From the IMG/VR virus record IMGVR_UViG_3300029071_000015: a stretch of DNA of 17,566 nucleotides. One strand, 5' to 3'. This DNA is from a virus. Taxonomy: Duplodnaviria; Heunggongvirae; Uroviricota; Caudoviricetes. The translations under genes were made by a program, and so were the position numbers. The stretch's first letter is position 1; each line of letters begins with the position of its first letter. Below the pieces are notes generated by a model that saw nothing but the letters and a program-made list of their open reading frames with translations, searched no databases and was not told the origin of the DNA. Below, piece by piece: positions 2,567 through 17,566 of the stretch.

Positions 2567-2698
2567 ACCGGACTGTCAGCGGCAACACTCCCGCACATGG
2601 ATTATGAGGTGGCAGACACACCGGCACAGCGCAAGGTGTGGCAGGACAAAATAGACCAGCAGGCAGCAGAGCTTAAGGCCAGAGGACTGCTGTCATGA
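2567..2698 (+). pseudogene. sid: 3' remnant (last ~43 codons) of a P4 sid-like capsid-size-determination gene
   Basis: Translation TGLSAATLPHMDYEVADTPAQRKVWQDKIDQQAAELKARGLLS* matches my recollection of the P4 Sid C-terminus; the stop overlaps the next start (tcATGAtg), as expected in a sid-delta-psu late operon. Confidence 0.6.
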
Positions 2699-2806
2699 TG
2701 CGCTGCCATTTCTGTCGTCATTCTGCGCATACCCGCACCGGCAAGCACAGCACCGGCTGTTGTCCGAAAAGTTAAAGGCTGTTACAGCTCACCATTCAAC
2801 CATTAA
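2695..2806 (+). pseudogene. ogr/delta-like zinc-finger late activator gene with internal deletion and frameshift
   Basis: Starts MMRCHFCRHSAHTRT (CxxC zinc-finger start like Ogr/delta) and terminates early; its 3' end in another frame encodes KVKGCYSSPFNH*, matching the C-terminus KVQGCYSSPFRH* of the intact copy at 12450..12689. About 110 bp here versus 240 bp in the intact copy. Confidence 0.55.
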
Positions 2807-2820
2807 TCAGGAGACGGGGT

Positions 2821-3393
2821 GTGACTACAATGTCATTACAGCAGGCTTTTGAGGTCTGCCAGAATAATAAAGCGGCATAGCTTCAGCGCAAAAATGAACT
2901 AGCGGCAGCCGAACAGGAATATCTGCGGCTTCTGTCCGGGGAAGGCAGGAATGTCAACCGGCTGGACGAATTACGCAATATTATCGAAGTCAGAAAATGG
3001 CTGGTGAATCAGGCCGCCGGTCGTTATATTCGTTCGCATGAAGCCGTTCAGCACATCAGCATCTGCGACCGGCTGAATGATTTTATGCAGCAGCACGGCA
3101 CAGCACTGGCGGCCGCACTGGCACCGGAGCTGATGGGCTACAGTGAGCTGACGGCCGTTGCCCGAAACTGAGCCATACAGCGTGCCACAGATGCCCTGCG
3201 TGAAGCCCTCCTGTCCTGGCTTGCGAAGGGTGAAAAAATTAATTATTCCGCACAGGATAGCGACATTTTAACGGCTATCGGATTCAGGCCTGACGAGGCT
3301 TCGGTGGATGACAGCCGTGAAAAATTCACTCCTGCGCAGAACATAATTTTTTCCCGTAAAAGTGCAGAACTGGCATCACGTCAGTCTGTGTAA
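2821..3393 (+). pseudogene. psu: psu (polarity suppression protein) pseudogene with two in-frame stop codons
   Basis: A 573-nt frame (190 codons plus stop, GTG start with RBS aggagacgggGTG) alignable along its length to the intact Psu at 12705..13271 (roughly 60% identity by eye); TAG at 2878..2880 where the intact copy has Trp, and TGA near 3170 where a sense codon is expected. Confidence 0.75.
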
Positions 3394-3423
3394 AATTCCC
3401 CGAAAATCCGCCTGTTTTTACTG

Positions 3424-3458
3424 AAAAAAGCCATGCATCGATAAGGTGCATGGCTTTG
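3424..3458 (+). terminator. Putative intrinsic terminator downstream of psu (element 2 copy)
   Basis: Hairpin gccatgca-tcgataagg-tgcatggc followed by ttt; a homologous hairpin follows the intact psu at 13311..13346. Confidence 0.35.
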
Positions 3459-3557
3459 CATGCGTTTTCCCGCCTCATTTCCTGCAGATCACGCCGCACC
3501 CGGCGCGGCCTGAGCGTGTCAGTGCAACTGCATTAAAACCGCTCCGCAAAGCGGGCG

Positions 3558-3576
3558 GGCGAGGCGGGGAAAGCAC
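3558..3576. other. cos site (19-nt P2/P4-type cohesive-end sequence)
   Basis: ggcgaggcggggaaagcac is identical to the P2/P4 cohesive-end sequence as I recall it, and sits downstream of psu as in P4. Confidence 0.6.
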
Positions 3577-3603
3577 TGCGCGCTGCAAATTAATACTAGC
3601 TTA

Positions 3604-4167
3604 TTAAGCATCCGCTTCAAATCCTCCAAGATCGATTTGCTCTTCGATTTCAGGAGTCCAAAGTAATTCTTCTGGCGTAGCGTTTGACCAAAGCAATTTA
3701 CCATTCTCGATAACATACTTAACCGGTATTTTAGGATTGTTTATGTCTTTACCATCTCTTTCATGCCATTGTCTCTCCCATTTATCATAGAAGACTTCCA
3801 AATCACCGGGCATGAGTAAATAAACTGAACGGATAGTGATATTACTATAAATTGCGAACACCCATGGAACCTGCCTATATTTCGCAATTATTGTTGGATT
3901 CATATGATGGTGAGTTGAAAAACTTTTAGTTAACTCAACATTAACTGATTTTAATTCAAACTCAGTACCAGTGACATCTACTGCATCATTACCTTCTCGC
4001 CCAGGAAGAACTTTAAGACTGAGAAGTAAAAGAACTTGCAGGAGTTTCCCTCCGTTATCTTGGAATATATCATTGATTCCGTGCTTATTAGCTAACCGTT
4101 GATATTCTTCAACCTGAGGCCAAAGCGCAATTAAATTTGACCAATCTTGATGCAACTCAAATTTCAT
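3604..4167 (-). CDS. Type II restriction endonuclease, PvuII-like (PD-(D/E)xK)
   Basis: 187-aa ORF; segments [51 protein letters not shown] and DKWER match my recollection of R.PvuII, including the catalytic D...E-x-K; ATGA overlap with the upstream C gene; divergent from the methyltransferase. Confidence 0.75.
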
Positions 4168-4400
4168 ACCTGATTATTCTCCAACAGGGAACTGGGAGAG
4201 ACGCCAAGGGCTGAAGCAATTCGGTCGATATTATCAATGGAAATATTTCTTTCACATCGCTCTACTGATCCGATGTAAGTTCTATGCAAGCCTGCTAAGT
4301 CAGCCAAGGCTTCTTGAGACAACCCTTGTCTCTCCCTTAACTTTCTGATGTTATGGGCAAAAATCACTCTTGCTCTTGAGGGGTTTATCTTTCGTTCCAT
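4164..4400 (-). CDS. Controller (C) protein of restriction-modification system, XRE-family HTH
   Basis: 78-aa ORF with a helix-turn-helix region ([41 protein letters not shown]) resembling C.PvuII-type controller proteins; sits immediately upstream of and overlaps the endonuclease gene. Confidence 0.8.
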
Positions 4401-4427
4401 TCGCGAGACAATGCAGCCTTGATGACA

Positions 4428-4452
4428 ATAGATCTACAGACTATGAGTAGCA
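4428..4452. promoter_or_regulatory. Putative C-box operator in the divergent M/C-R intergenic region
   Basis: The 55-bp intergenic region contains dyad-symmetric elements (tagatcta; actatgagt, i.e. ACT-N3-AGT) just upstream of the C gene start, where C-protein operators normally lie. Confidence 0.4.
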
Positions 4453-4455
4453 GTT

Positions 4456-5430
4456 ATGACATTTGACAATAAAAAACCTGCGTACAAAACAGATTTGGGT
4501 GCAATGTACATTGCTGACTCGCTTGAAATGCTTAAATCGATGCCAGACAACAGCTTAAATTTAGTGATGACAAGCCCACCTTTCGCATTACAGCGTAAGA
4601 AAGAATATGGTAATCACGATCAAGAACAGTACATCGATTGGTTTTTAAAATTCGGCGAGCTGATTTTTAAAAAGCTAAAAGATGATGGTAGCTTTGTCGT
4701 CGATTTTGGTGGTGCTTACATGAAAGGAGTGCCTGTTAGAAGTGTCTACAACTTCCGGGTTTTGATCAGGATGATTGATGAGGTTGGGTTCCATCTGGCT
4801 GAGGACTTCTATTGGTTTAACCCTTCAAAACTACCAAGTCCTATTGAGTGGGTTAACAAAAGAAAGCTGCGTGTTAAAGATTCTGTTAACACAATTTGGT
4901 GGTTTAGCAAAACCGAATGGCCAAAGTCAGATATAACTAAAGTTCTTGTTCCCTATAGTGATAGGATGAAAAAACTTATTGAAGACCCTAATAAATATTA
5001 TTCCCCCAAAATGCGTCCATCAGGGCATGATATAAGCAGCAGCTTTGGCAAAGATAATGGCGGTGCTATACCTCCAAATTTATTGCAAATTCCCAACTCC
5101 GAATCTAACGGTGGATATTTATCGAGTTGTAAAAAAATTGGCGTTAAGGGGCATCCAGCACGATTCCCATCTAAATTGCCGGAGTTTTTCATTACAATGT
5201 TAACAGAGCCGGGTGATCTTGTTGTAGATATTTTTGGCGGTTCAAATACAACTGGAAGTGTTGCTGAACGATTAAAACGCAAATGGCTTTCATTTGAAAT
5301 ATTACCTGAATATGTAGCCGCATCTGTATTTAGATTTACAGATAAAAATACAAGTCAAGATATACTTCAAGAGATGTATGACACTATATTAAATGGAAAT
5401 ACTCTCGATTTATGCGCCAAAGAGAAATAA
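4456..5430 (+). CDS. DNA methyltransferase, beta-class amino-MTase (likely N4-cytosine, M.PvuII-like)
   Basis: 324-aa ORF; motif IV TSPPF near the N-terminus and motif I FGGSNTTG near the C-terminus (the circularly permuted order typical of beta-class N4C/N6A MTases); divergently arranged to the C-R genes. Confidence 0.8.
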   Translation: MTFDNKKPAYKTDLGAMYIADSLEMLKSMPDNSLNLVMTSPPFALQRKKEYGNHDQEQYIDWFLKFGELIFKKLKDDGSFVVDFGGAYMKGVPVRSVYNFRVLIRMIDEVGFHLAEDFYWFNPSKLPSPIEWVNKRKLRVKDSVNTIWWFSKTEWPKSDITKVLVPYSDRMKKLIEDPNKYYSPKMRPSGHDISSSFGKDNGGAIPPNLLQIPNSESNGGYLSSCKKIGVKGHPARFPSKLPEFFITMLTEPGDLVVDIFGGSNTTGSVAERLKRKWLSFEILPEYVAASVFRFTDKNTSQDILQEMYDTILNGNTLDLCAKEK

Positions 5431-5505
5431 GGTCAAATCGTAGTTAGCTAATTCGTAAAGAAAGCCAGTCATAGAGTCAGATTGGCTTTCTATCAGCATA
5501 AATAA

Positions 5506-6764
5506 TTAAGCATGAAGTTTTGCGTAGTCAAATGGACTAATAGGTTTAATCTTGTTTGCATCAAGATAATCAGCCCACCATTGAACCATTAATCGCCTTT
5601 CATCCAAATGTTCAGGGGTATGAATATAAGCTGCCCTAACACTATTACGCTCAGAATGACTCAACTGACGTTCTATCGCGTCATCACTCCATAGCCCCGA
5701 CTCCCCCAACGCACCACGTGCCATATTCCTAAAACCATGACCACAGACTTCCGTTTTTGTGTTATATCCCATCGCACGCAATGCATTGTTTACCGTATTT
5801 TCACTCATAACCTTAGCTGCGTCATGATCTCCCGGGAAAAGAAGCTCTTTATCACCACTAATCTGCTCAAGCTGTACTAACAACATCATCGCCTGCTGGC
5901 TAAGTGGAACTATATGCTCCTCTTTCATTTTCATGCCGCGATACGAGTAACGCACACCTTTAATTTCTTCACGTTTTGCCGGAATACGCCAAATAGCGTT
6001 ATCAAAATCAAATTCTTTCCAACGAGCAAAACGCAATTCGCTTGAACGAACAAAAGTTAGTAAAGAAAGCTCAACCGCAATTTTCGTCATCATACGACCA
6101 CGATATGCAGCAAGACGCGCCAAGAACTCAGGGAAACGATGTGAGGGTAGCGCCGGATAGTGCCGCATTTTAGATGTCGATAACGCTCCAGCCATATCAC
6201 TTGCAGGATTCGAGTCTATATAATCGTTCTGTACGGCATAGCGCATAATAGTAGTGACACGTTGCTGAAGACGCTGCGCTACATCATGCTTACCACTGGC
6301 ATCAACTTTTTTATCGGAGCTAGAAGATGACTAGTTTTAAGCTGTCGGATATCAGACGAGCCAATATAAGGGAAGATATAAAGCTCTAGATAGCGAAGAA
6401 CGCGCCCCCGATGATCCTCGCTCCAACGTTTGTTGCTGGCATGCCATTCACGGGTAATAGTTTCAAAATTATAAGTACCAGCATTCTCTGCTTGGGCCTC
6501 TTTTCGTACTGCTTTTGGATCTATGCCGTGTGCCAGCAACTTTTTCGCTTCATCCCTTCTCGTTCTAGCTTCAGCAAGCGTCACGGTCGGCCAAACACCA
6601 AAAGCAAGACGATCCTCTTTTTTGTCGGAGGGGCGTCTGTATTTCATACGCCAATATTTAGAGCCTTTGATAGAAACCTCAAGATACAAACCGCCACCAT
6701 CAGCCATTTTGTAGGTTTTGTCTTTTAGCTTTGCGGTCTCGACTTGTCTGGCGTTGAGCTTCAT
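5506..6764 (-). pseudogene. int: P4-family tyrosine integrase, frameshifted (split into 6279..6764 and 5506..6246 ORFs)
   Basis: The two ORFs together align along the intact integrase at 16301..17566 (roughly 85-90% identity); the nucleotide alignment shows a 1-bp deletion near 6270..6290 (ttttttatcgg versus ttttttaatcgg in the intact copy) that breaks the frame. Confidence 0.8.
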
Positions 6765-6916
6765 TTTGGGGGCACATTTCTAATCGAAGTTAAGATGCCC
6801 CCAATGATATCCGGATTTCAACGGACAACCTCGGAAGAGGTAGGACGTAAAAATCGCTGCAAGCATTGATTTTAAAGGGATATTTGGACTTTCTCGGATG
6901 GTCTTGGAAGTACTAA

Positions 6917-6935
6917 TGGTGCGAAGGCCGGACTC
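6917..6935 (-). other. att core remnant: partial copy of a tRNA-Leu (leuX-like) 3' end
   Basis: tggtgcgaaggccggactc is the reverse complement of a tRNA-Leu 3' end (...GAGTCCGGCCTTCG(G)CACCA) with one base missing; located ~150 bp upstream of the frameshifted int, in the same orientation as a tRNA-int arrangement. Confidence 0.45.
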
Positions 6936-7080
6936 AAATTACGATATAACATACTGAAATATAATAATTTTAAATTAAAAGGAAAGTAATATGCCCCCTT
7001 TTGTGCCCCCAACGATTTTTTTGAGCATATAAAACCTAGCTAATTGATATTGCTAACAAATTAAAGATTAACTCCCTATT

Positions 7081-7111
7081 CGGTTAGGATCCGAAATCCG
7101 GATCCTAACCG
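7081..7111. repeat. Perfect 13-bp inverted repeat with 5-nt spacer
   Basis: cggttaggatccg-aaatc-cggatcctaaccg; no flanking T-run, so not a typical intrinsic terminator. Confidence 0.7.
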
Positions 7112-7129
7112 GAACTTAATCCCCACAAA

Positions 7130-7415
7130 AAAGTTTTTTTGCATTTAACTGTTCATACTGTTCACCTTGGTTATTTCTCATTTTATATCATGCAGTTAAG
7201 TGATGATGAGTTGGTGAAGGGTGAACAGTCGACTCTTCACCTTTGTTCGTTTTACTCATTCTGGGGGGGCCCCGTCAGGCGATACACGGGGGGATAAAAA
7301 GTTTTTTCCGGTTTTACTGTTCACACTGTTCACCTCTGGTTTTTTATCAATAATTTCATGGTGATACAGGGTGAACATACGGTGAAGGGTGAACAGTGGA
7401 GTGTTCACCCTGTGG
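7130..7415. promoter_or_regulatory. crr-like cis replication region: two ~120-bp direct repeats containing TGTTCACC-type iterons in both orientations
   Basis: Unit 1 (about 7130..7245) and unit 2 (about 7296..7415) each contain aaaaagttttttt, ctgttcaNactgttcacc and ggtgaagggtgaacag; TGTTCACC is the P4 alpha-protein type I iteron; located just past the 3' end of the primase gene, as crr is in P4. Confidence 0.55.
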
Positions 7416-7461
7416 CAATGTCCAGTAAGAAAATGACCGGCTATTGCCGGTCTTAGGTTGG

Positions 7462-9795
7462 TTATGCCTCTGCGGGGTCGTCGCACTTCGGCAGCCAGTC
7501 GCCGTAGCTTTCCTCTTTCAGCGACAGGTTAGTCTGTATCCCCTGCTTTGTGTGCCGCTTCTCATAATTCAGGCCGTACTCTTTCAGCATCATGGGCAGC
7601 CCCAGCCCGAACATTTTCAGGCTGAGTACGTTCCTGTACCCGTTAGCCTCCATATAGGCCAGATACGCGTGATAGAGATATTTACGGTAATTACGCGGGA
7701 TGATGCTGGCATTCCCCATAAACATCCCGTTGGTCTGCGGGAGCATTTCCAGATAGCCGCAAAAATCAAACGTCGGGTCAGCATCGCGCTTGATGCTGAG
7801 CGCCTCGTCGGAGTTCTGCTGCGACTGGAGCAGTGCGCGCGCTGCCATCGGGTCGCTGAATTTCTGCATAAGCTGGCGCACAATCACGGCCAGCTCACGC
7901 GCAATTTTATCCCTGAGCTGCGGGTCGCGTTCCTCCGGCGCAATCTGCTCCGGGAAGTGGATAATCACCCGGCGGCGCGACACACCGCCGCTGCGGTCGG
8001 TGAAGCGCATGGGGTTATTGTTCACGGCCAGAATCACCGCCGGAATATGTGTTGAGTATGGGTTCTGGTATTTCGGGTCAACTGAGACCGCATCGCCGCC
8101 GGTGATGGCCTTAAGTCCTGCGCCGTCACCGCTCCATTTTTCCTGGTCTGGCAGACGGATTAGCGAGAAGCCAATCAGGGAGGCACGCTTGCGCGGGTCT
8201 TCCAGTGTGTCGATATCGGCCGACGTGGCGTTATCTTCCCCGGCGAGCAGGGTCGCGATTTCGGCCAGAATACTTTTGCCGCTCCCGCCGGGGCCGGTGA
8301 CTTCGAGAAAGAGCTGCCAGTCGTAGCGGTTCGCCAGTACCATAAACAGCGCGGCCAGAATCACGTCGCGTTTTTGTGGATTTTTGCCGGCCGCACGGTC
8401 GAGCCAGCGCCAGAAGTTCGGCGAGTGAGTCTCCAGCGTTTCCCCGTCCACCGGTGGGGTGAAATCCACGTCGCACAGCGTGCGCAGCCAGTGTGATTTA
8501 CTGTGCGGGCTGAACAGGCCGCTCTGGGTATCGAGTACCCCGTTGCGAAAGCCAATCAGACGACGCGCCGGTGTATCCTGCTGCGGAATAATCAGTTTCA
8601 GGGTCTCCACCACCGAGGCAATTTTCCCCGATGAGAACGGGGCGCGCAGACGCTGGAATAAGTCAGCCACATTCCGTGAAAAAGTGGCGGCAGGGATATT
8701 TTTCCAGATGCCGTTTTCATAGCGGGACAGGAGCTGGCCGTTTGCATCCACCGCCAGCGCTTCGCCGTAATGCTCATGCACCCGCAAGGCCTTGTCGCTG
8801 GCGCTCATGGCGGTAAATTCCGCCTCGCTCATGGTATCAAACGGGCTTTGCGCCGGTGGCCGGATAGCGTCATAAATGGCTTTGCGTGTCGCATCCTCAC
8901 CATTCTGCATAAACGCATCATTCCAGTCACCGAACACCGGCGGCAGGGCGACAATGCCCTCACAGGCTTCTGCGGCCGCGGCGGCTTTACTCTGGCCGTC
9001 GCCGTTAAGGTCACGGTCGGCGGCGAGCACAATCTGACAGGCCGGGTGTTTTTGTCGGGCAAGGCTCGCCAGAGAAAGGAGGTTCACGGAGGACAGCGCC
9101 ACCATGACGGTTTCGCCGGTCAGGTGATGCACGGTGAGCGCGGTCGCATAACCCTCCGCTATCCACAGGCGCTTTCCCGCCTGTTTTTTCCCTTCGATGA
9201 TGTGGCACGCTCCTTTTACCGCCCCGCCTTTCAGGGTGCGTTTGAGACCGTCAGAATTAATAAGCTGAACGTTAACCAGCGCCCCGGCATCGTCATACAG
9301 TGGGACAACCATATCACCGGCGCGGAACGTCACACCGCCGGTTTTGTGTGTGGCCGTCAGCATGACACACTCATGACCGGGGAATCCCTTGCGGGTGAGG
9401 TAGGCATTGCCGCTGGCCGGTCGGGTTTTCTCCATGAGCCTGACGGCCAGCGCGGCCGCCGCCTGGCGGTCAACCTCCGTTTCTGCTTCTGCGGCCGCAA
9501 TCACTTCCGGGGCAACCGGCGGCAGGTTGCCGGTCACGGCGTTCACCTTTTGAGCTGCCTCTGACGGATTTACACCGAACACCTTTTCAACCAGCTTAAG
9601 CCCGTCACCTGCGCCACACTGATTGCAAAACCACGTCCCGCGCCCTTCTTTATCATCAAAGCGGAAACGGTCAGAGCCGCCACACACCGGGCAGGACTGA
9701 TGGCGGTTTTTAATCACCTTCACACCCAGCGCAGGGAGAATGTGCGGCCAGTGGCCGCAGGCCTGTTTTACCGTTTCTGTTACGTTCATTTTCAT
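7462..9795 (-). CDS. P4 alpha-like primase-helicase (zinc-binding primase, P-loop NTPase)
   Basis: Long ORF; start chosen at MKMNVTETV with RBS gagggagaaaacaaccATG; N-terminal zinc-finger CPVCGGSDRF...FCNQCG; Walker A GPGGSGKS; size comparable to P4 alpha. Confidence 0.9.
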   Translation of the reverse strand: MKMNVTETVKQACGHWPHILPALGVKVIKNRHQSCPVCGGSDRFRFDDKEGRGTWFCNQCGAGDGLKLVEKVFGVNPSEAAQKVNAVTGNLPPVAPEVIAAAEAETEVDRQAAAALAVRLMEKTRPASGNAYLTRKGFPGHECVMLTATHKTGGVTFRAGDMVVPLYDDAGALVNVQLINSDGLKRTLKGGAVKGACHIIEGKKQAGKRLWIAEGYATALTVHHLTGETVMVALSSVNLLSLASLARQKHPACQIVLAADRDLNGDGQSKAAAAAEACEGIVALPPVFGDWNDAFMQNGEDATRKAIYDAIRPPAQSPFDTMSEAEFTAMSASDKALRVHEHYGEALAVDANGQLLSRYENGIWKNIPAATFSRNVADLFQRLRAPFSSGKIASVVETLKLIIPQQDTPARRLIGFRNGVLDTQSGLFSPHSKSHWLRTLCDVDFTPPVDGETLETHSPNFWRWLDRAAGKNPQKRDVILAALFMVLANRYDWQLFLEVTGPGGSGKSILAEIATLLAGEDNATSADIDTLEDPRKRASLIGFSLIRLPDQEKWSGDGAGLKAITGGDAVSVDPKYQNPYSTHIPAVILAVNNNPMRFTDRSGGVSRRRVIIHFPEQIAPEERDPQLRDKIARELAVIVRQLMQKFSDPMAARALLQSQQNSDEALSIKRDADPTFDFCGYLEMLPQTNGMFMGNASIIPRNYRKYLYHAYLAYMEANGYRNVLSLKMFGLGLPMMLKEYGLNYEKRHTKQGIQTNLSLKEESYGDWLPKCDDPAEA

Positions 9796-9809
9796 GGTTG
9801 TTTTCTCCC

Positions 9810-10130
9810 TCAGTGCAGTACCGGCGCGGTGATATGACGGGCGCAAAGCTCATCCATCACGGCCAGCCCGAGAAAGGACAGCGACGGCGCGGCTTTGAGT
9901 GGTCCGGCTTCCATTAAATCCTCCAGTAGTGCACAGGCAATCTGGCGGCCTTTTTCCTCGCCGTGCTGGCGCAGGTAGAAGCCCTCCAGTTCGGCGGCAA
10001 TAGTGCTTTCCAGCGCGTCGAGGGTGAGGTGTGGATGGCGGTGCTGACGTTCGCACAGGGTCAGCCATGCACAGGCCACGGCGCGACGATACAGCGCGGC
10101 GCGTAATACGGGCGGTAATGGCTTTTTCAT
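9810..10130 (-). CDS. Hypothetical protein, P4-family early-operon gene upstream of primase
   Basis: 106-aa ORF ending 14 nt upstream of the primase start; ATGA overlap with the preceding gene suggests an operon. Confidence 0.5.
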
Positions 10131-10545: not shown

Positions 10546-10747
10546 AGCGGCAATCTCCAATAAGTAGCGGTTATCGCCACCACAAGAGCTGCAAATCTCA
10601 TGGGTGGTAGCCCGGACAGGGTTTGCAGTACCGGCCTTATTGGAAACCGGCCAGCCCGAAGGCTGCCCCGCCCGGACCACCATTATCTGACAGGAGCCAC
10701 GGTGTAAGCACCACAGCCCGAAAAATAGGTGTGTCTGAGCAACGACA

Positions 10748-10770
10748 TAAAAAAACACGCTCGGCGCGTG
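10748..10770 (-). terminator. Putative intrinsic terminator (minus strand) downstream of the AlpA-like gene
   Basis: 6-bp stem acacgc/gcgtgt with 5-nt loop, followed on the minus strand by a run of 7-8 U. Confidence 0.35.
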
Positions 10771-10898
10771 TTGTGTCGCCAATAAGTTACACGGGCTGCA
10801 AATCCCGGCTGCCGATTTTGCGACAGCGGGAAAACTATACCTGGAAACGGCGAAAAGAAGCAAGCCAGAAAAAGGGGCTGTTTGCTGAACGGTCATCA

Positions 10899-11165
10899 TC
10901 ACGCGTCATAGCCCTGGTTACGTTCGGCAATGCGATCCGCCATCCATGCAGTGATTTCAGACTGCGCCCACGCCACATTTTTTCCGCCGAGGGAGATTTG
11001 TTTCGGGAAGGCTTCCCGGCTGATAAGGTCGTAAATGGTCGAACGGGACAGGCCGCACAGATGCATCACTTCGGGCAGACGGATAAAGCGCTCGTGAACG
11101 GTATCAGAAACCGGCATCAGCGGCGCGGCAGGGGCAGAAGACGGGGAAGAAAAAGCGGTGTGCAT
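10899..11165 (-). CDS. AlpA/Vis-family phage transcriptional regulator (excisionase-like HTH)
   Basis: 88-aa ORF containing [42 protein letters not shown], typical of AlpA-family proteins; RBS gaggtagcccgATG; the true start may be the internal Met (MPVSD). Confidence 0.75.
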
Positions 11166-11630: not shown

Positions 11631-11702
11631 ACGGTAATGAATCGTGTTGTTGTGCAGGAGGCGTCAGAATCATTTCAGGTTGAACACACGGAGAGCCTGA
11701 AC

Positions 11703-12446
11703 ATGAAACCCGAACTCATTATCAAAGCCATGCAGACCGTTATCAGTAAACAGGATGAAGGCGCGGAACAACGCATTGCCGGTGCGCTGGCCGCACTTAA
11801 CGAAGCAAAAGACGCATACATGGCCAGCATGGAAAAACTCAGCGACATTGAGGCTTCCATTCAGCGTTGTGAGCAGGAACGACAGACTGCCCTCAGTGAA
11901 AGCGCACAGGCCGAACAGGACTGGCGCAGCCGCTTTCGAACCCTGCGTGGCAACCTCACTCCTGAACTGAAAGCTGAACACAGTAAGCGTATCGCCAGCC
12001 GCGAACTGGCTGATGAGTTCACCGGTCTGATTACCGAGCTCGAGAAAGACAAAAGCCTCGCCATGCTTGGCGCATGCTCCTCCGGTACGGCTTATATCCG
12101 CGCCCATGAAAAAGCATTCACCACTTACGCCAACAGCGAGTGGAAGAAGGCGCAGGCCGGAATCAGCCCCGCACTGTTACGTGCCTTCCTGTTGCGTATA
12201 CGGTCGCTGGAAATGAGTGGGGAAACCTCGCCGCGCGCGACCGTGAATCGCGAGCTGGGTGATGCACTTAATATGCAGTCAGCCCTGTATCATTTTAATA
12301 TTACACAGGAGCCGGTTCTGTCCGTAACGGGCATGAATCGTCCGGTAATTACCGGGGTTGATATGGAACTGTTCAAAAGCCCCGCCAAACGGATGAAGCT
12401 TGCCGCTGAACTGGCAGCCAAAAACCCTGAACAGGCGGAGGGCTGA
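11703..12446 (+). CDS. Sid-like protein (putative capsid-size-determination / external scaffold), divergent
   Basis: About 247 aa from the internal Met with RBS ggagagcctgaacATG; coiled-coil-like, Ala/Glu/Gln-rich; sits immediately upstream of delta and psu as sid does in P4; C-terminal segment (EPVLSVTGMNRPVITGVDMELF) shows weak resemblance to the P4 Sid C-terminus seen at 2567..2698. Confidence 0.55.
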   Translation: MKPELIIKAMQTVISKQDEGAEQRIAGALAALNEAKDAYMASMEKLSDIEASIQRCEQERQTALSESAQAEQDWRSRFRTLRGNLTPELKAEHSKRIASRELADEFTGLITELEKDKSLAMLGACSSGTAYIRAHEKAFTTYANSEWKKAQAGISPALLRAFLLRIRSLEMSGETSPRATVNRELGDALNMQSALYHFNITQEPVLSVTGMNRPVITGVDMELFKSPAKRMKLAAELAAKNPEQAEG

Positions 12447-12449
12447 ATT

Positions 12450-12689
12450 ATGTTTCACTGCCCGTTCTGCAAAAAGACCTCGCATGTCCGAACCAGCCGG
12501 TATCTGTCGGAAAACGTCAAACAGCGTTATCACCAGTGTACCAATATCGAATGCTCGGCCACTTTCCGCACCATCGAGTCTGTTGACGGTGTGATACGTG
12601 CCGCACCGGAGAAAACCGACCCCGCCCCGGTGACGCCAGCGCCGCCGCGTAAAGTACAGGGCTGCTACAGCTCGCCGTTCCGGCATTAA
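12450..12689 (+). CDS. Ogr/Delta-family zinc-finger late transcription activator
   Basis: 79-aa ORF MFHCPFCKKTSHVRTSRY...YHQCTNIECSATF with the CxxC...CxxC arrangement of P2 Ogr / P4 delta; starts 3 nt after the sid-like stop. Confidence 0.85.
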   Translation: MFHCPFCKKTSHVRTSRYLSENVKQRYHQCTNIECSATFRTIESVDGVIRAAPEKTDPAPVTPAPPRKVQGCYSSPFRH

Positions 12690-12704
12690 TCAGGAGAGAG
12701 ACAC

Positions 12705-13271
12705 GTGACCACTGTGACATTGCAGCAGGCCTTTGAGGCCTGTCAGACGAACAAAAACACCTGGCTGAAACGTAAAGCCGAACTGGCCGACCTTGAACTT
12801 GAATACCGTGAACAGCTCCTTGCCGGTGACGAACAAATCCCGCGCAAAATGCAGGATTTGCGCGACAATATCGACGTGAAAAAATGGGAGATTAATCAGA
12901 CTGCCGGTCGCTATATCCGCTCACATGAGGAGGTGCAGCACATCAGCATTCGCAACCGGCTCAATGACTTTATGCAGCAGCACGGCGCGGAGCTGGCCGC
13001 CACGCTGGCACCTGAGCTGATGGGATATCACGAACAGCTTCCCGCAGTAAAACAGAGCGCCATGCAGCACTCGGTTGATTATCTGCGTGAAGCCCTGTCG
13101 GTGTGGCTGGCCGCCGGTGAAAAAATTAATTATTCCGTGCAGGACAGCGATATTTTAACGGCCATCGGATTCAGGCCTGATGCGGCTTCGCGGGATGATA
13201 GTCGCGAAAAATTCACCCCGGCACAGAACCTGATTTACACCCGCCGACGTGCAGAACTGGCCACACGGTAG
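12705..13271 (+). CDS. psu: Psu-like polarity suppression protein
   Basis: 188-aa ORF (GTG start with RBS caggagagagacacGTG) with conserved blocks AGRYIRSHE.VQHISI, RLNDFMQQHG, LAPELMGY, GEKINYS.QDSDILTAIGFRPD and DSREKFTPAQN matching my recollection of P4 Psu and the pseudogene copy at 2821..3393. Confidence 0.85.
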   Translation: MTTVTLQQAFEACQTNKNTWLKRKAELADLELEYREQLLAGDEQIPRKMQDLRDNIDVKKWEINQTAGRYIRSHEEVQHISIRNRLNDFMQQHGAELAATLAPELMGYHEQLPAVKQSAMQHSVDYLREALSVWLAAGEKINYSVQDSDILTAIGFRPDAASRDDSREKFTPAQNLIYTRRRAELATR

Positions 13272-13310
13272 CACGCGAAAAAATCCCCGAAAATTCCGCT
13301 ATTTTTCCTG

Positions 13311-13346
13311 AAAAAAGCCATGCATCCATAAGGTGCATGGTTTTGC
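13311..13346 (+). terminator. Putative intrinsic terminator after psu
   Basis: Hairpin gccatgca-tccataagg-tgcatgg followed by tttt. Confidence 0.4.
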
Positions 13347-13444
13347 ATGCAAATCCCCGTATTTTTTATCCCACGCAACACCAGTGCCGGTGCGGCCTGA
13401 GGCCGTTCATGCACCTGCATTAAAAGCGACCTCTTAAGCGGGCA

Positions 13445-13463
13445 GGCGTGGCGGGGAGAGCAT
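13445..13463. other. Variant cos-like site (16/19 match to the P2/P4 cohesive-end sequence)
   Basis: ggcgtggcggggagagcat versus canonical ggcgaggcggggaaagcac (present intact at 3558..3576); same position relative to psu and the upstream hairpin. Confidence 0.45.
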
Positions 13464-13588
13464 TGCGCGCTAAGCCGTGAGGATAATTATTATCCTACTC
13501 ATGACCTGTCTAATCGGAAAGAAGTGAAAATATTCATGTAACCCCTGAATATTTAACGTTAAACCGATCAAATTCTAGGGCGAAAATA

Positions 13589-13618
13589 TTGCCTGAGCTA
13601 AGTCAATGGGAGTATGCT
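13589..13618 (+). promoter_or_regulatory. Candidate sigma70 promoter for the cargo cassette
   Basis: TTGCCT-N18-TATGCT about 50 bp upstream of the cassette start codon at 13669; weak match, by eye only. Confidence 0.25.
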
Positions 13619-13668
13619 TAATTTTTGATCATGGTGCATATCCAAAGATAAGAAGCTAAGGAAAGAGC

Positions 13669-14748
13669 ATGAATGTAGGGCATCTCAATTTTTTCAAGGT
13701 TAATAAGTGCGGTTTATACAAGGTAAATGATGACAATACCTATGGTTTAGAACTAAGCGAAACATTTGACCTCATACAGGATTGGGTAGGAACTAAACCT
13801 CTTGCACTCACCATACCATGGGACCCAAAAGAAAAACCCAATAGATCAAAGTGTTATTGTAAAGACATCTACAAAGATGAAAATACTGGTGATTTTTTAA
13901 TCATGTTATGGAAATCTGATACTGATAGTACTGGTTCTTTATTAGGAGCGAGTGAAGACGGTGAAATCGGAAGTTCATCAGTGGTTAAATATACTAATAG
14001 CTACAGAGGGAAAAAAGTCATCTGGGGTCGCCCATGCTTTTATTGGGTTATACCTGAACTTGAAACTATAGTTTCTATTAAATTCGATCATTCTGTTTGT
14101 GACTCTGAACTATTTCAAGATTATGTACACTCATCTATTACTAATAGAGTTAAACATAGCAAAAGAGTTAAAAATAAAACCGAGAAAGGTTATATAAGAT
14201 TATCTAATACTGATGACGAAGATTTATATAAATACATGTACAGATTTGATATGAAGCTCCGAAGCTTAGAAACCACTCATGCTGAGTTAGGTAAATTGAT
14301 ATCAAAAATAACACATATTGTTCGCAGAGAAACCATTATTATAAATCCAAATGACGCACGAGCTGATTGGTTAAAGACTTTTAGCACTCTCGTTCCATTT
14401 GTGTCCGGAAAGAAAAACACCAGAACAAGACAGATTGAAATAAAAGCAGAAGCGAAGCCATCCTTGAAAGAAGTTCAAGAAATAATTGAAAAACATTCTG
14501 CTGAGGATAGAGAAAAACGTCTTTGGGATAATGTGGGATTTGCGACGGACAAGGGCATAACATGGGTGGATAAATATAGAATGCGTGATATTCTCAATGT
14601 CCCTTCCGAAGACTATTCGACATATACCGCTGCATATATCTACGAACACATATCACACAAAAGAAAAGAATTCATTTCCCCTATATTAAAAGAGCTAAAA
14701 GCATTAAAATCTCAATCAAGAATAAAGAAAGCATCTGGAGAGGATTGA
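13669..14748 (+). CDS. Hypothetical protein (cargo gene A, 359 aa, soluble, Lys-rich)
   Basis: Long ORF with RBS aaggaaagagcATG; AT-rich codon usage contrasting with the satellite backbone; no catalytic motif I can recognise; stop directly abuts the next start (TGAATG). Confidence 0.7.
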   Translation: MNVGHLNFFKVNKCGLYKVNDDNTYGLELSETFDLIQDWVGTKPLALTIPWDPKEKPNRSKCYCKDIYKDENTGDFLIMLWKSDTDSTGSLLGASEDGEIGSSSVVKYTNSYRGKKVIWGRPCFYWVIPELETIVSIKFDHSVCDSELFQDYVHSSITNRVKHSKRVKNKTEKGYIRLSNTDDEDLYKYMYRFDMKLRSLETTHAELGKLISKITHIVRRETIIINPNDARADWLKTFSTLVPFVSGKKNTRTRQIEIKAEAKPSLKEVQEIIEKHSAEDREKRLWDNVGFATDKGITWVDKYRMRDILNVPSEDYSTYTAAYIYEHISHKRKEFISPILKELKALKSQSRIKKASGED

Positions 14749-15285
14749 ATGTTAAAAGCTATAGTAGGCCTCGTCAAATACACATGGATATACATAGCAA
14801 TATTCATTATATCGCTATTGGTCATTTTACCATCCGATATTTACTATGTGTATAACGATTTTGCTAACTATTGCACTCTTCTCGTATCAGTTTCTGGAAT
14901 GGTTTTTACTATTATGGGGATTTGGTTAGCGTTTCTTTATCCAAATGCTTTGCAGCGTATTGTTAACCCCAAAACTATAGAAACTGTTGATTTCACCGAA
15001 CAACTGGAAGATACAAAAAGGTTAGAAGCAATAGTTGGAAGTGTTCTAAAATCATCTTTCGTTATGATTACTTTACTTGTTGTATATTTAGTTAAACTAG
15101 TATTTTTCAAGAGTCATCTTTATTTAGAGAGTCAAGAAGTAATAAAAGACATATCTTTAGCATTAATTATTGCCATTTCATACATGCAGATTGAGGCAGT
15201 GATTAGTGTAATACTAGCTAATGTTATGTTTATCAATGATTTACATAATAAGCGAGAGCAAAGAGACATCGACGATCAAGTATGA
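14749..15285 (+). CDS. Hypothetical integral membrane protein (cargo gene B, 178 aa, ~4 TM helices)
   Basis: Four hydrophobic segments (WIYIAIFIISLLVIL, LLVSVSGMVFTIMGIWLAFLY, FVMITLLVVYLVKLVFF, LALIIAISYMQIEAVISVILANVMFI); translationally coupled to gene A. Confidence 0.7.
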   Translation: MLKAIVGLVKYTWIYIAIFIISLLVILPSDIYYVYNDFANYCTLLVSVSGMVFTIMGIWLAFLYPNALQRIVNPKTIETVDFTEQLEDTKRLEAIVGSVLKSSFVMITLLVVYLVKLVFFKSHLYLESQEVIKDISLALIIAISYMQIEAVISVILANVMFINDLHNKREQRDIDDQV

Positions 15286-15292
15286 GGAAAAA

Positions 15293-16246
15293 ATGAAAAA
15301 AAACATACGAGTTATACCTAAAAACATTCATAACAAGTTAAAAAGGCTTGGCAATGCAGTTGTTGCTGGCACTTCCATCGCATTTACAGAAGACCAATTA
15401 AAAAATGGTATACTAGAGCACCTTGGAATATACTTTGATAATGGTGTTAATGCTTATGAGACGTCGGTTATACCCGATCCATTGCAAGGCAAATATTCAT
15501 TCAAAAATGTTTTCGGTGAAGAAATCGTAAGAAAAGACCTTCCAAAAGAAACTCATTACACTGAAATTGAGTCACCTAACTGGGGTGATAGTTCTAACGG
15601 TACGCATACTGTTAGATTACCTCACGAGAAATACCCCAGAGATATTATCCCACCAAGACTCATAGCAATTGAAATTAATCACAAACAGTCTTCGGACAGT
15701 CATTTCATATTTAATTTCAGAGTAACTAGAATTTTAGAAAAAAAATCAACCAAGTTTCATGATGAATTATTATTCGACTTAAATCTTCTTCAAGAAAATA
15801 TTGGGAAGTGTGGGATTGAGAATGCTGATAAACCTATATCGACTTATGCTGACACACTCATAGTATCATGGGACATATTTCCACCAGGTAGTAAAGAGGA
15901 AGTTTTAGCAAGAATCTTTAGAGGGAAAAATATCACTACAGATAAGAAAAGTGTTGCTGAAAACAGATATGACTTCTTTATGAGCCTTGATCCTAAAAAA
16001 ATTGTCACAGGTAATAGTACGTTCAGTAATTATATTGGAGCTATGCTAGAGGACGACCTGGTTGTTTTTGAAAATATAGAATATGGTAATGCAATATATA
16101 TCCTCTATGATAACTGGGATGAAATCAGCAAGCTATCTCGAATCGATTTGTTATCAGGAAGAGCAGGCAATAATTTCGATAGAATAATTCATAGTGGTAA
16201 TTGGAAAGACGAGGTGCGAAAAAAAGTTACTAATGGAAGATTATGA
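15293..16246 (+). CDS. Hypothetical protein (cargo gene C, 317 aa, soluble)
   Basis: Start placed at MKKNIRV with RBS tatgaggaaaaaATG, 7 nt after the gene B stop; the longer listed ORF (from 15221) would overlap gene B; followed by a strong terminator. Confidence 0.65.
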   Translation: MKKNIRVIPKNIHNKLKRLGNAVVAGTSIAFTEDQLKNGILEHLGIYFDNGVNAYETSVIPDPLQGKYSFKNVFGEEIVRKDLPKETHYTEIESPNWGDSSNGTHTVRLPHEKYPRDIIPPRLIAIEINHKQSSDSHFIFNFRVTRILEKKSTKFHDELLFDLNLLQENIGKCGIENADKPISTYADTLIVSWDIFPPGSKEEVLARIFRGKNITTDKKSVAENRYDFFMSLDPKKIVTGNSTFSNYIGAMLEDDLVVFENIEYGNAIYILYDNWDEISKLSRIDLLSGRAGNNFDRIIHSGNWKDEVRKKVTNGRL

Positions 16247-16263
16247 TTAAAGTGTTTAACACA

Positions 16264-16300
16264 AAATAAACGCCTATTTAAATTATAGGCGTTTATTTTG
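16264..16300. terminator. Bidirectional intrinsic terminator between cargo gene C and int
   Basis: Hairpin aaacgcctat-ttaaatt-ataggcgttt flanked by an A-run upstream and a T-run downstream; lies between convergent genes. Confidence 0.5.
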
Positions 16301-17566
16301 CTATTGTTTTTTGTTTATTTTAGCAAAATCATAAGGTGTAACTGTTTTGCTTTCATTTGCTTTGAGGTAATCAGCCCACCATTGCACCATCAAGCGACGC
16401 TCATCCAAATGCTCAGAGGTATGAATATACGCAGCACGTACATTATTTCTTTCCGAATGGCTCAACTGCCGTTCAATCGCGTCATCACTCCATAATCCTG
16501 ACTCACCCATAGCACCACGTGCCATCGTTCTGAATCCATGCCCGCAAACTTCAGTTTTCGTGTCATAGCCCATCGCACGCAGGGCGCTATTTACCGTGTT
16601 TTCACTCATAACCTTAGTTGCGTCATGATCCCCAGGAAACAGCAGCTCTTTATCACCACTAATTTGCTTGAGCTGCTCTAATAAAACCATCGCCTGCCGA
16701 CTGAGAGGAACGATATGCTCCTCTTTCATCTTCATGCCACGGTATGAGTAACGCACGCCTTTAATTTCTTCTCGCTTTGCCGGTATGCGCCAAAGAGATT
16801 TATCGAAGTCGAATTCATCCCAACGCGCGAAACGTAACTCACTGGAACGCACAAAAGTTAGTAAGGAAAGCTCGACAGCGATCCGTGTCATTACACGGCC
16901 ACGATAAGCAGCAAGCCGAGCAAGAAACTCAGGGAACCGGCTTGAGGGTAAAGCGGGGTAATGTCGCGCTTTGGTTGTCGATAGCGCACCGGCCATATCA
17001 CTGGCTGGATTTGATTCGATGTAATCGTTCTGTACGGCATAACGCATGATCGCCGTGACGCGCTGTTGCAAGCGCTGAGCGACGTCATGCTTTCCACTGG
17101 CATCAACTTTTTTAATCGGGGCTAACAGGTGGCTGGTTTTGAGCTGGCGAATGTCGGACGAACCGATATGAGGAAAAATATAAAGCTCAAGATATCGAAG
17201 AACGCGCGATCGATGGTCTTCACTCCATCGCTTGTTACAGGCATGCCATTCACGAGCAATGTTTTCGAAAGTATATGCCCCTGAATTCTCGGCTTGAGCT
17301 TCTTTCTGTTCGGCTTTTGGGTCAATGCCCTGCACTAACAGCTTTTTAGCTTCATCGCGCTTTGCTCTTGCCTGAGCAAGAGTCACTGTAGGCCAAACAC
17401 CAAAAGCAAGGCGATCCTCTTTTTTGTCTGAGGGGCGTCTGTATTTCATGCGCCAGTATTTAGAACCCTTGGCCGACACTTCAAGATACAACCCCCCGCC
17501 ATCGGCCATTTTGTAGGTTTTGTCTTTCGGCTTTGCGGTCTCGACCTGTCTGGCGTTGAGCTTCAT
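16301..17566 (-). CDS. int: P4-family tyrosine integrase (site-specific recombinase), intact
   Basis: 421-aa ORF; catalytic HxxR (HGFRTMARG) and C-terminal Tyr region (VRAAYIHTSEH); start codon is the last three bases of the window, so the promoter, att site and presumed tRNA lie beyond the window. Confidence 0.9.
   Translation of the reverse strand: MKLNARQVETAKPKDKTYKMADGGGLYLEVSAKGSKYWRMKYRRPSDKKEDRLAFGVWPTVTLAQARAKRDEAKKLLVQGIDPKAEQKEAQAENSGAYTFENIAREWHACNKRWSEDHRSRVLRYLELYIFPHIGSSDIRQLKTSHLLAPIKKVDASGKHDVAQRLQQRVTAIMRYAVQNDYIESNPASDMAGALSTTKARHYPALPSSRFPEFLARLAAYRGRVMTRIAVELSLLTFVRSSELRFARWDEFDFDKSLWRIPAKREEIKGVRYSYRGMKMKEEHIVPLSRQAMVLLEQLKQISGDKELLFPGDHDATKVMSENTVNSALRAMGYDTKTEVCGHGFRTMARGAMGESGLWSDDAIERQLSHSERNNVRAAYIHTSEHLDERRLMVQWWADYLKANESKTVTPYDFAKINKKQ

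Follow-up and report, generated by a model that had tools for sequence, protein, structure and literature searches.

A one-base-short leuX-end att core at the junction of two P4-type satellites in tandem

The window, by which we mean the whole stretch of DNA analysed (17,566 nt), holds two P4-type satellites, each with its own integrase: that of element 1 (int1) is intact (16301-17566) and that of element 2 (int2) is a pseudogene (5506-6764). Element 1, the newer of the two, is an intact satellite of about 10.8 kb that extends from about 6917 to just past 17566, and element 2, the older, is decayed and spans about 2567-6916; the remaining left part of the window carries an HNH gene and nanS. 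The P4-type identity is in keeping with the domain content, namely int, Psu, Delta, primase-helicase, AlpA, C4 RNA and cos. The features of element 1 are as follows.

16301..17566, - strand: integrase of the P4 family, intact, 421 aa
13669..16246, + strand: hotspot cargo of low GC (0.32-0.36), PADLOC PDC-M18 A/B plus a third ORF
13445..13463, + strand: cos-like site, 3 mismatches to P4 cos
11637..13271, + strand: late genes, whole block
12705-13271, + strand: Psu
12450-12689, + strand: Delta
11637-12446, + strand: ORF in the Sid position, no Pfam match, named from the annotations of E. coli relatives
10600..11165, - strand: immunity and excision region
10899-11165, - strand: AlpA/Vis-type excisionase ORF
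10750-10827, - strand: isrK
10600-10687, - strand: C4 antisense (immunity) RNA
7462..9846, - strand: alpha-type primase-helicase with Zn-ribbon, Toprim, D5_N, DUF5906 and Pox_D5 domains

The core set of P4-like satellites is thus present in element 1 (int, psu, delta, putative sid, alpha, C4-type RNA and cos), together with a DUF5375 ORF. The putative sid is assigned only by gene position and by the annotations of its relatives as "capsid size-determining scaffold Sid" or "glycoprotein 3". The GC content of the cargo (0.32-0.36) compares with about 0.55-0.6 for the satellite core. PADLOC identifies in this cargo a candidate defence pair, PDC-M18 A and B (E=1.5e-38 and 9.6e-16, respectively), and the third cargo ORF gave no family match; all three genes are also found in E. 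coli 3PT (L005).

In element 2 and at the left end of the window, the following features are recognised.

5506..6764, - strand: integrase pseudogene (int2) of the P4 family, with Arm-DNA-bind_3, Phage_int_M and Phage_integrase domains
3604..5430: PvuII-type restriction-modification module, R 3604-4167 (-), C 4164-4400 (-) and M 4456-5430 (+)
3558..3576, + strand: cos, an exact match to nt 1-19 of the P4 genome
2821-3381, + strand: psu pseudogene, 65% aa identity to element 1 psu, with in-frame stops
2695-2803, + strand: delta fragments
1305-2566: segment bounded by a 46-nt inverted repeat (1305-1350 and 2521-2566, 98% complementary)

A frameshift near 6303-6312 splits int2, which has 88% aa identity to int1, into ORFs of 161 and 246 aa. 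Sid, the immunity region, the primase and a distal att core are all absent from element 2, which is cut off at about 2567. The PvuII-type R-C-M system with its controller protein is complete and apparently intact, though the rest of the element is decayed. The 1.26-kb segment bounded by the inverted repeat encodes a 197-aa membrane-like ORF (1763-2356; no Pfam or PADLOC match) and a C-terminal fragment resembling an outer-membrane protein (1387-1656), and it takes up the position in which three other genomes (L153, L158 and L160) show the chromosomal edge, with a truncated att core directly against the HNH gene's stop codon.

Between the two satellites, at 6917-6935 on the + strand, lies the 19-base motif TGGTGCGAAGGCCGGACTC / tggtgcgaaggccggactc. 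Its reverse complement GAGTCCGGCCTTCGCACCA occurs as a single copy in the window with up to 3 mismatches allowed (0 expected from 200 shuffles), so that a second or third core copy, such as one at the distal end of element 2, is not found in the window at this threshold; the full 20-mer GAGTCCGGCCTTCGGCACCA is absent from a whole-window search. Intact E. coli leuX genes terminate in ...GGTTCGAGTCCGGCCTTCGGCACCA, and the motif is that 3′ end with exactly one G fewer, matching the last 20 nt of tRNA-Leu(CAA) (leuX) at 19/20 positions with a single-base deletion. The earlier note had read the motif as the reverse complement of a leuX 3′ end minus one base, in the orientation of the adjacent integrase and between the primase end of one element and the integrase of the other, and the alignment to intact E. 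coli leuX genes bears this out: the tRNA-sense reading is on the - strand, as are the adjacent integrase ORFs (6764..5506), with the primase-helicase at 7462-9846 on one side and, on the other, the split integrase starting at a distance of 152 nt. Nowhere in the window does ARAGORN call a tRNA gene, which leaves the core as an orphan fragment; Rfam at the gathering threshold reports nothing at the motif, and an E-value search of 6700-7500 gave noise alone. In place of a cloverleaf body, an AT-rich satellite arm lies 5′ of the core (in tRNA sense), and the site is therefore neither a tRNA gene nor a tRNA pseudogene.

The arms on the two sides of the core come from different satellites.

6936..7013, - strand: P arm from element 1, with the TTT(GAGTCC) T-loop variant as in P4 attP
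6917..6935, - strand: 19-bp att core, the leuX 3′-terminal 20-mer minus one G; the attR of element 1, in the place where element 2 formerly had its attL
6765..6916, - strand: P′ arm of element 2, the integrase upstream region

Arm-type repeats flank the core on both sides at a spacing similar to that in the P4 attP annotation, with ATGCCCCC at 6991-6998 and GTGCCCCC at 7003-7010 in the P arm (56-75 nt from the core) and two further repeats at 6768-6775 (inverted) and 6795-6802 in the P′ arm (115-149 nt from the core). The P arm starts with TTTGAGTCC, as in P4 attP, and 3′ of the core (in tRNA sense) the alignment shows the integrase-upstream arm that E. coli 13E0767 has behind its intact leuX and that P4 has in its attP. 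The whole of window 6800-7500 can be aligned with P4 3961-4674 (74% identity), through the int start, attP, crr and the alpha end. At the position of the P4 crr repeats, past the att arm repeats and before the end of the primase gene, the window has a perfect palindrome, cggttaggatccg-aaat-ccggatcctaaccg (about 7073-7108), and a related palindrome is present in E. coli 3PT.

In megablast searches of 5,426 complete E. coli genomes, the homology breakpoints coincide exactly with the motif: the hits to window 6500-6938 are "integrase | tRNA-Leu" junctions, those to window 6916-7500 are primase-distal ends of P4-like elements, and the exact junction is found in none of these genomes (0 places with at least 80% query coverage). 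Furthermore, an intact leuX lies beyond int1. Three metagenome contigs (L166-L168) encode exactly int1, are 100% identical to window 13301-17566 (4266/4266 bases) and all run on into an intact tRNA-Leu(CAA) (ARAGORN) that ends 163 nt upstream of the int1 ATG; in extended window coordinates this leuX would fall at about 17730-17814 on the - strand and its 3′ end is the full 20-mer. Two more copies of the window locus were found (L163 and L164; 100% and 99.8% identity). The breakpoints on the motif and the intact leuX beyond int1 support the earlier proposal of a shared junction of a tandem insertion at leuX, and the motif is genuine, an att junction of a common kind that belongs to a tandem array of P4-type satellites at this gene. 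The identical core that had been expected past 17566 is there in that intact leuX, one base longer than the core in the window.

The backbone beside leuX outside the window (L166, 1-2300) contains an lptG-yjgR segment with 99.7% identity to just 6 E. coli genomes of 5,426 and 80-90% identity to the others, a divergent allele block beside an integration hot spot; ahr in this backbone is shortened to 76 aa. Because of the 99.7% identity to six E. coli genomes, the host is most probably E. coli.

The order in which the two satellites arrived can be read from genomes that have element 2 alone. In four such genomes (L178, L179, L180 and L182), found as contigs encoding the exact 161-aa N-terminal ORF of int2, yjgR and ahr′ are followed by a leuX ending in the 20-mer and then by the flank and split int2 known from the window. 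Their identity to window 4779-6935 is 99.3-99.7%, with a single gap per alignment, so that the P′ arm of the window is nearly the same sequence that follows an intact leuX where element 1 is absent; element 2 is also present in NCBI assemblies. The later state is seen in the window and in L181, in which another P4-like element occupies the same place with a different P arm, and both carry the 19-mer. Genomes with and without a P4-like element at exactly this position thus both exist. Together, the comparison of element 2 alone with L181 and the window shows that element 2 came first and was already frameshifted, that among genomes sharing the element 2 flank the 19-mer occurs only with a P4-like element upstream, and that it arose independently at least twice at this site, tied to the incoming P4-like element.

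The 19-mer is widespread. It is found exactly in at least 120 species-representative genomes, almost all of Enterobacterales, in a scan that could detect 19-mers only; later scans accepted either length near P4-type features. Together with L002, L003 and L005, the 120 matches listed from the scan make up 123 sites, of which 122 are orphan fragments. On the left, the orphan 19-mers are bordered by element-type sequences that group into families recurring in different genera; on the right, they border either terminator-like or integrase-upstream DNA. Of the P4-type distal sites in IMG/VR, 24 of 26 in the first scan and 29 of 30 in the later one have the 19-mer. Six proviruses have both ends on a single contig, and every one of them pairs a 20-mer at the tRNA with a 19-mer at the distal site. 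Five metagenome junctions with an integrase side and a primase side also all have the 19-mer, and from their contexts these could themselves be tandem junctions.

The 20-mer is found at two P4-type distal sites (L129 and L145), and the published P4 attP (GenBank X51522 and X05947) is annotated with the full 20-mer; attP is therefore polymorphic. An IMG/VR scan with an integrase-side anchor pattern gave 0 matches to a free attP of a natural P4-like element, a search of a plasmid collection for free attP gave nothing relevant, and a literature search returned no statement on a 19-mer core or on the P4 exchange point.

Several single loci stand beside these counts. In Pantoea eucrina (L063, 2010-2093) a full-length tRNA-Leu(CAA) has the 19-mer and hence an acceptor stem one base short, and in Salmonella enterica subsp. 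arizonae (L016, about 540-602) a leuX fragment covering the anticodon loop through the 3′ end has the 19-mer, with a terminator after it; a simple model in which the 19-mer comes from attP accounts for neither. In E. coli W5-6 (L003, about 3420-3445) the same 19-mer links the end of a CbtA/YeeU-type island to the flank of a P4-family integrase, making another tandem junction at leuX, from which it follows that the off-by-one core is not confined to P4-type satellites. Three P4-like distal cores in IMG/VR contain 4, 3 and 2 tandem copies of the 8-mer GGTGCGAA (L155, L156 and L157, respectively; for example TGGTGCGAAGGTGCGAAGGTGCGAAGGCCGGACTC), and another has a larger deletion (TGGTGAAGG; L159). 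This indel hot spot lies exactly at the missing base and may mark the cleavage or overlap region.

We propose that element 2 was the first of the two P4-type satellites to integrate at leuX and decayed thereafter, and that the attP of element 1 later recombined with the leuX end still joined to the integrase-upstream arm of element 2. The products would be an intact leuX (20-mer) by int1 and a hybrid site consisting of the primase-side arm of element 1, the core and the integrase-side arm of element 2. The missing base would have been brought in by the attP of the incoming satellite and would not reflect decay of the host tRNA end, which implies that the partial tRNA duplicate anticipated at the distal junction is indeed a copy of the leuX end, one that is off by one base and presumably satellite-borne via attP instead of a decayed host duplicate. 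From the distribution of the two lengths, we infer that natural P4-like attP sites carry the 19-mer and that strand exchange takes place 3′ of the missing G. For the event in the window, exchange would fall between the missing G and a T/C difference 14 nt past CCA, where the attL of element 1 has AAGATCATCC and both L180 and the junction have AAGACCATCC; where an insertion borders the common E. coli flank, exchange would fall within GCACCA. The host tRNA would accordingly be kept almost whole, not rebuilt from the element, and the site is predicted to serve still as attR for excision of element 1 by Int and Vis.

We regard this explanation as a whole, i.e., an att core between stacked satellites, element 2 before element 1, a 19-mer borne by attP and exchange 3′ of the missing G, as very probable. 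Several observations run counter to it: the identity at GCACCA is only about 6 bp, which is short for a tyrosine recombinase; the deletion in the full-length leuX of P. eucrina is not predicted; the published P4 attP and the two distal sites named above have the 20-mer; and neither the viral scan and plasmid search nor the metagenome junctions yielded an unambiguous free or circular attP of a natural P4-like element. That the same holds for natural P4-type satellites and many leuX-targeting islands of Enterobacterales in general, with a conserved off-by-one copy in attP and exchange at the terminal GCACCA or just beyond, has in our view an even chance of being right.

The same lengths could also arise if the GG lay inside the overlap region, such that recombination of a 19-mer attP with a 20-mer attB yields a heteroduplex that is then resolved or selected, leaving a functional leuX at attL and the 19-mer at attR. 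The clustering of indels exactly at GG, including the 8-bp tandem expansions of two to four copies, speaks for this, as do the 20-mer of P4 itself and the occurrence of both lengths within one P-arm family (L137 versus L145; L014 and L048 versus L170). However, the asymmetry in all six proviruses would then demand strong selection every time, and in lambda-type integrases heterology in the overlap normally blocks the tyrosine-recombinase reaction. We consider this account improbable, if the best of the alternatives.

Less likely still, by about half, is that exchange takes place at the 5′ boundary of the identical stretch, where T-stem and acceptor meet, with the element re-supplying the tRNA 3′ end and the old end, of the host or of element 2, losing its G by random decay. 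Such displacement is the general model for tRNA-targeting islands (Islander, PMC4383910), displaced fragments are free to decay, and other indels do occur at the same spot (L155-L157 and L159). The flanks argue against it. The terminator-like flank that borders many P4-like distal 19-mers follows an intact 20-mer leuX directly in about 3190 of 5,426 E. coli genomes, and it leads on to an integrase gene at the two loci read further (L005 and L170). The same flank has GG whenever it stands directly after leuX and keeps the 20-mer where a non-P4 island lies upstream (O157:H7, L170), whereas it nearly always has the 19-mer when a P4-like element comes before it. Decay would also have to account for 29 of 30 distal sites, six of six pairs and two independent insertions, and independent loss of one and the same base in nearly all lineages is unparsimonious.

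The reverse order of arrival, with element 1 first at leuX and element 2 later inserted into its attR, is very unlikely: the junction sequence alone is silent on order, but the genomes with element 2 alone at leuX carry the identical integrase frameshift, and element 2 is heavily decayed whereas element 1 is intact. That the 19-mer is the true 3′ end of another tRNA, or a chance or unrelated sequence, has a negligible probability: the one-base difference from leuX is all that speaks for it, 0 matches are expected by chance, no Rfam family is found at the site and the sole full tRNA among the matches listed is a leuX with a deletion; with orphan fragments at 122 of 123 sites among the matches listed from the species-representative scan, we rejected the end of another tRNA as a candidate.

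The site has much in common with the P4 attP and the leuX attB (X51522 and X05947; "attP core sequence", 20-bp), including the core, its orientation to int and its distance from the int start, as well as the arm-type repeats and the start of the primase-side arm. It differs in having a core of 19 nt, not 20 nt (one G fewer), and in being a chromosomal hybrid of the attR/attL type, with arms from two satellites, and not a free attP. As in the tandem arrays described with Islander, two same-orientation, integrase-bearing elements share one tRNA gene with a tDNA fragment between them, and the newer element sits beside the intact tRNA. In those arrays each member has its own tDNA fragment, whereas here one core is found in the window and none distal to element 2, which has lost its own, so that only element 1 fully matches the description. 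Moreover, the fragment here appears to be element-derived and not a displaced host piece, in contrast to the general statement in the Islander paper that the island rebuilds the tRNA end and leaves a displaced fragment at the distal side (PMC4383910).

Both window elements share their target tRNA and integrase family with the E. coli leuX islands. Cryptic P4-type islands associated with leuX in E. coli include KpLE2/intB of K-12 and the leuX pathogenicity islands. Unlike the latter, the two elements in the window are not large pathogenicity islands but satellites of the P4 type carrying psu, delta and cos. The region between int and psu is known from earlier work as a hotspot of P4-like satellites. 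It has also been described as a defence hotspot (NAR 2026, PMC13586616), and variable cargo is found at the same position here, with PDC-M18-like genes in element 1 and the PvuII-type restriction-modification module in element 2; this cargo is background to the att site and forms no part of it.

The type of structure is already well known, and what the present analysis adds is the origin and generality of the missing base. The site marks the boundary of two stacked P4-type satellites, which helps to delimit the elements and their defence-gene cargo, and the junction shows that the newer element sits beside the tRNA. Programs for finding att sites that look for an exact duplicate of the tRNA end, or presume displaced host DNA at the distal side, will mis-model P4-like elements, and the 19/20 asymmetry provides a free comparative map of the strand-exchange position of P4-family integrases. 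If the off-by-one copy is indeed general, leuX-targeting elements would never rebuild the tRNA, at odds with the 20-bp P4 core of the textbooks and with the rule that an island restores its target gene, and the offset might aid directionality or keep the distal site from being a second target.
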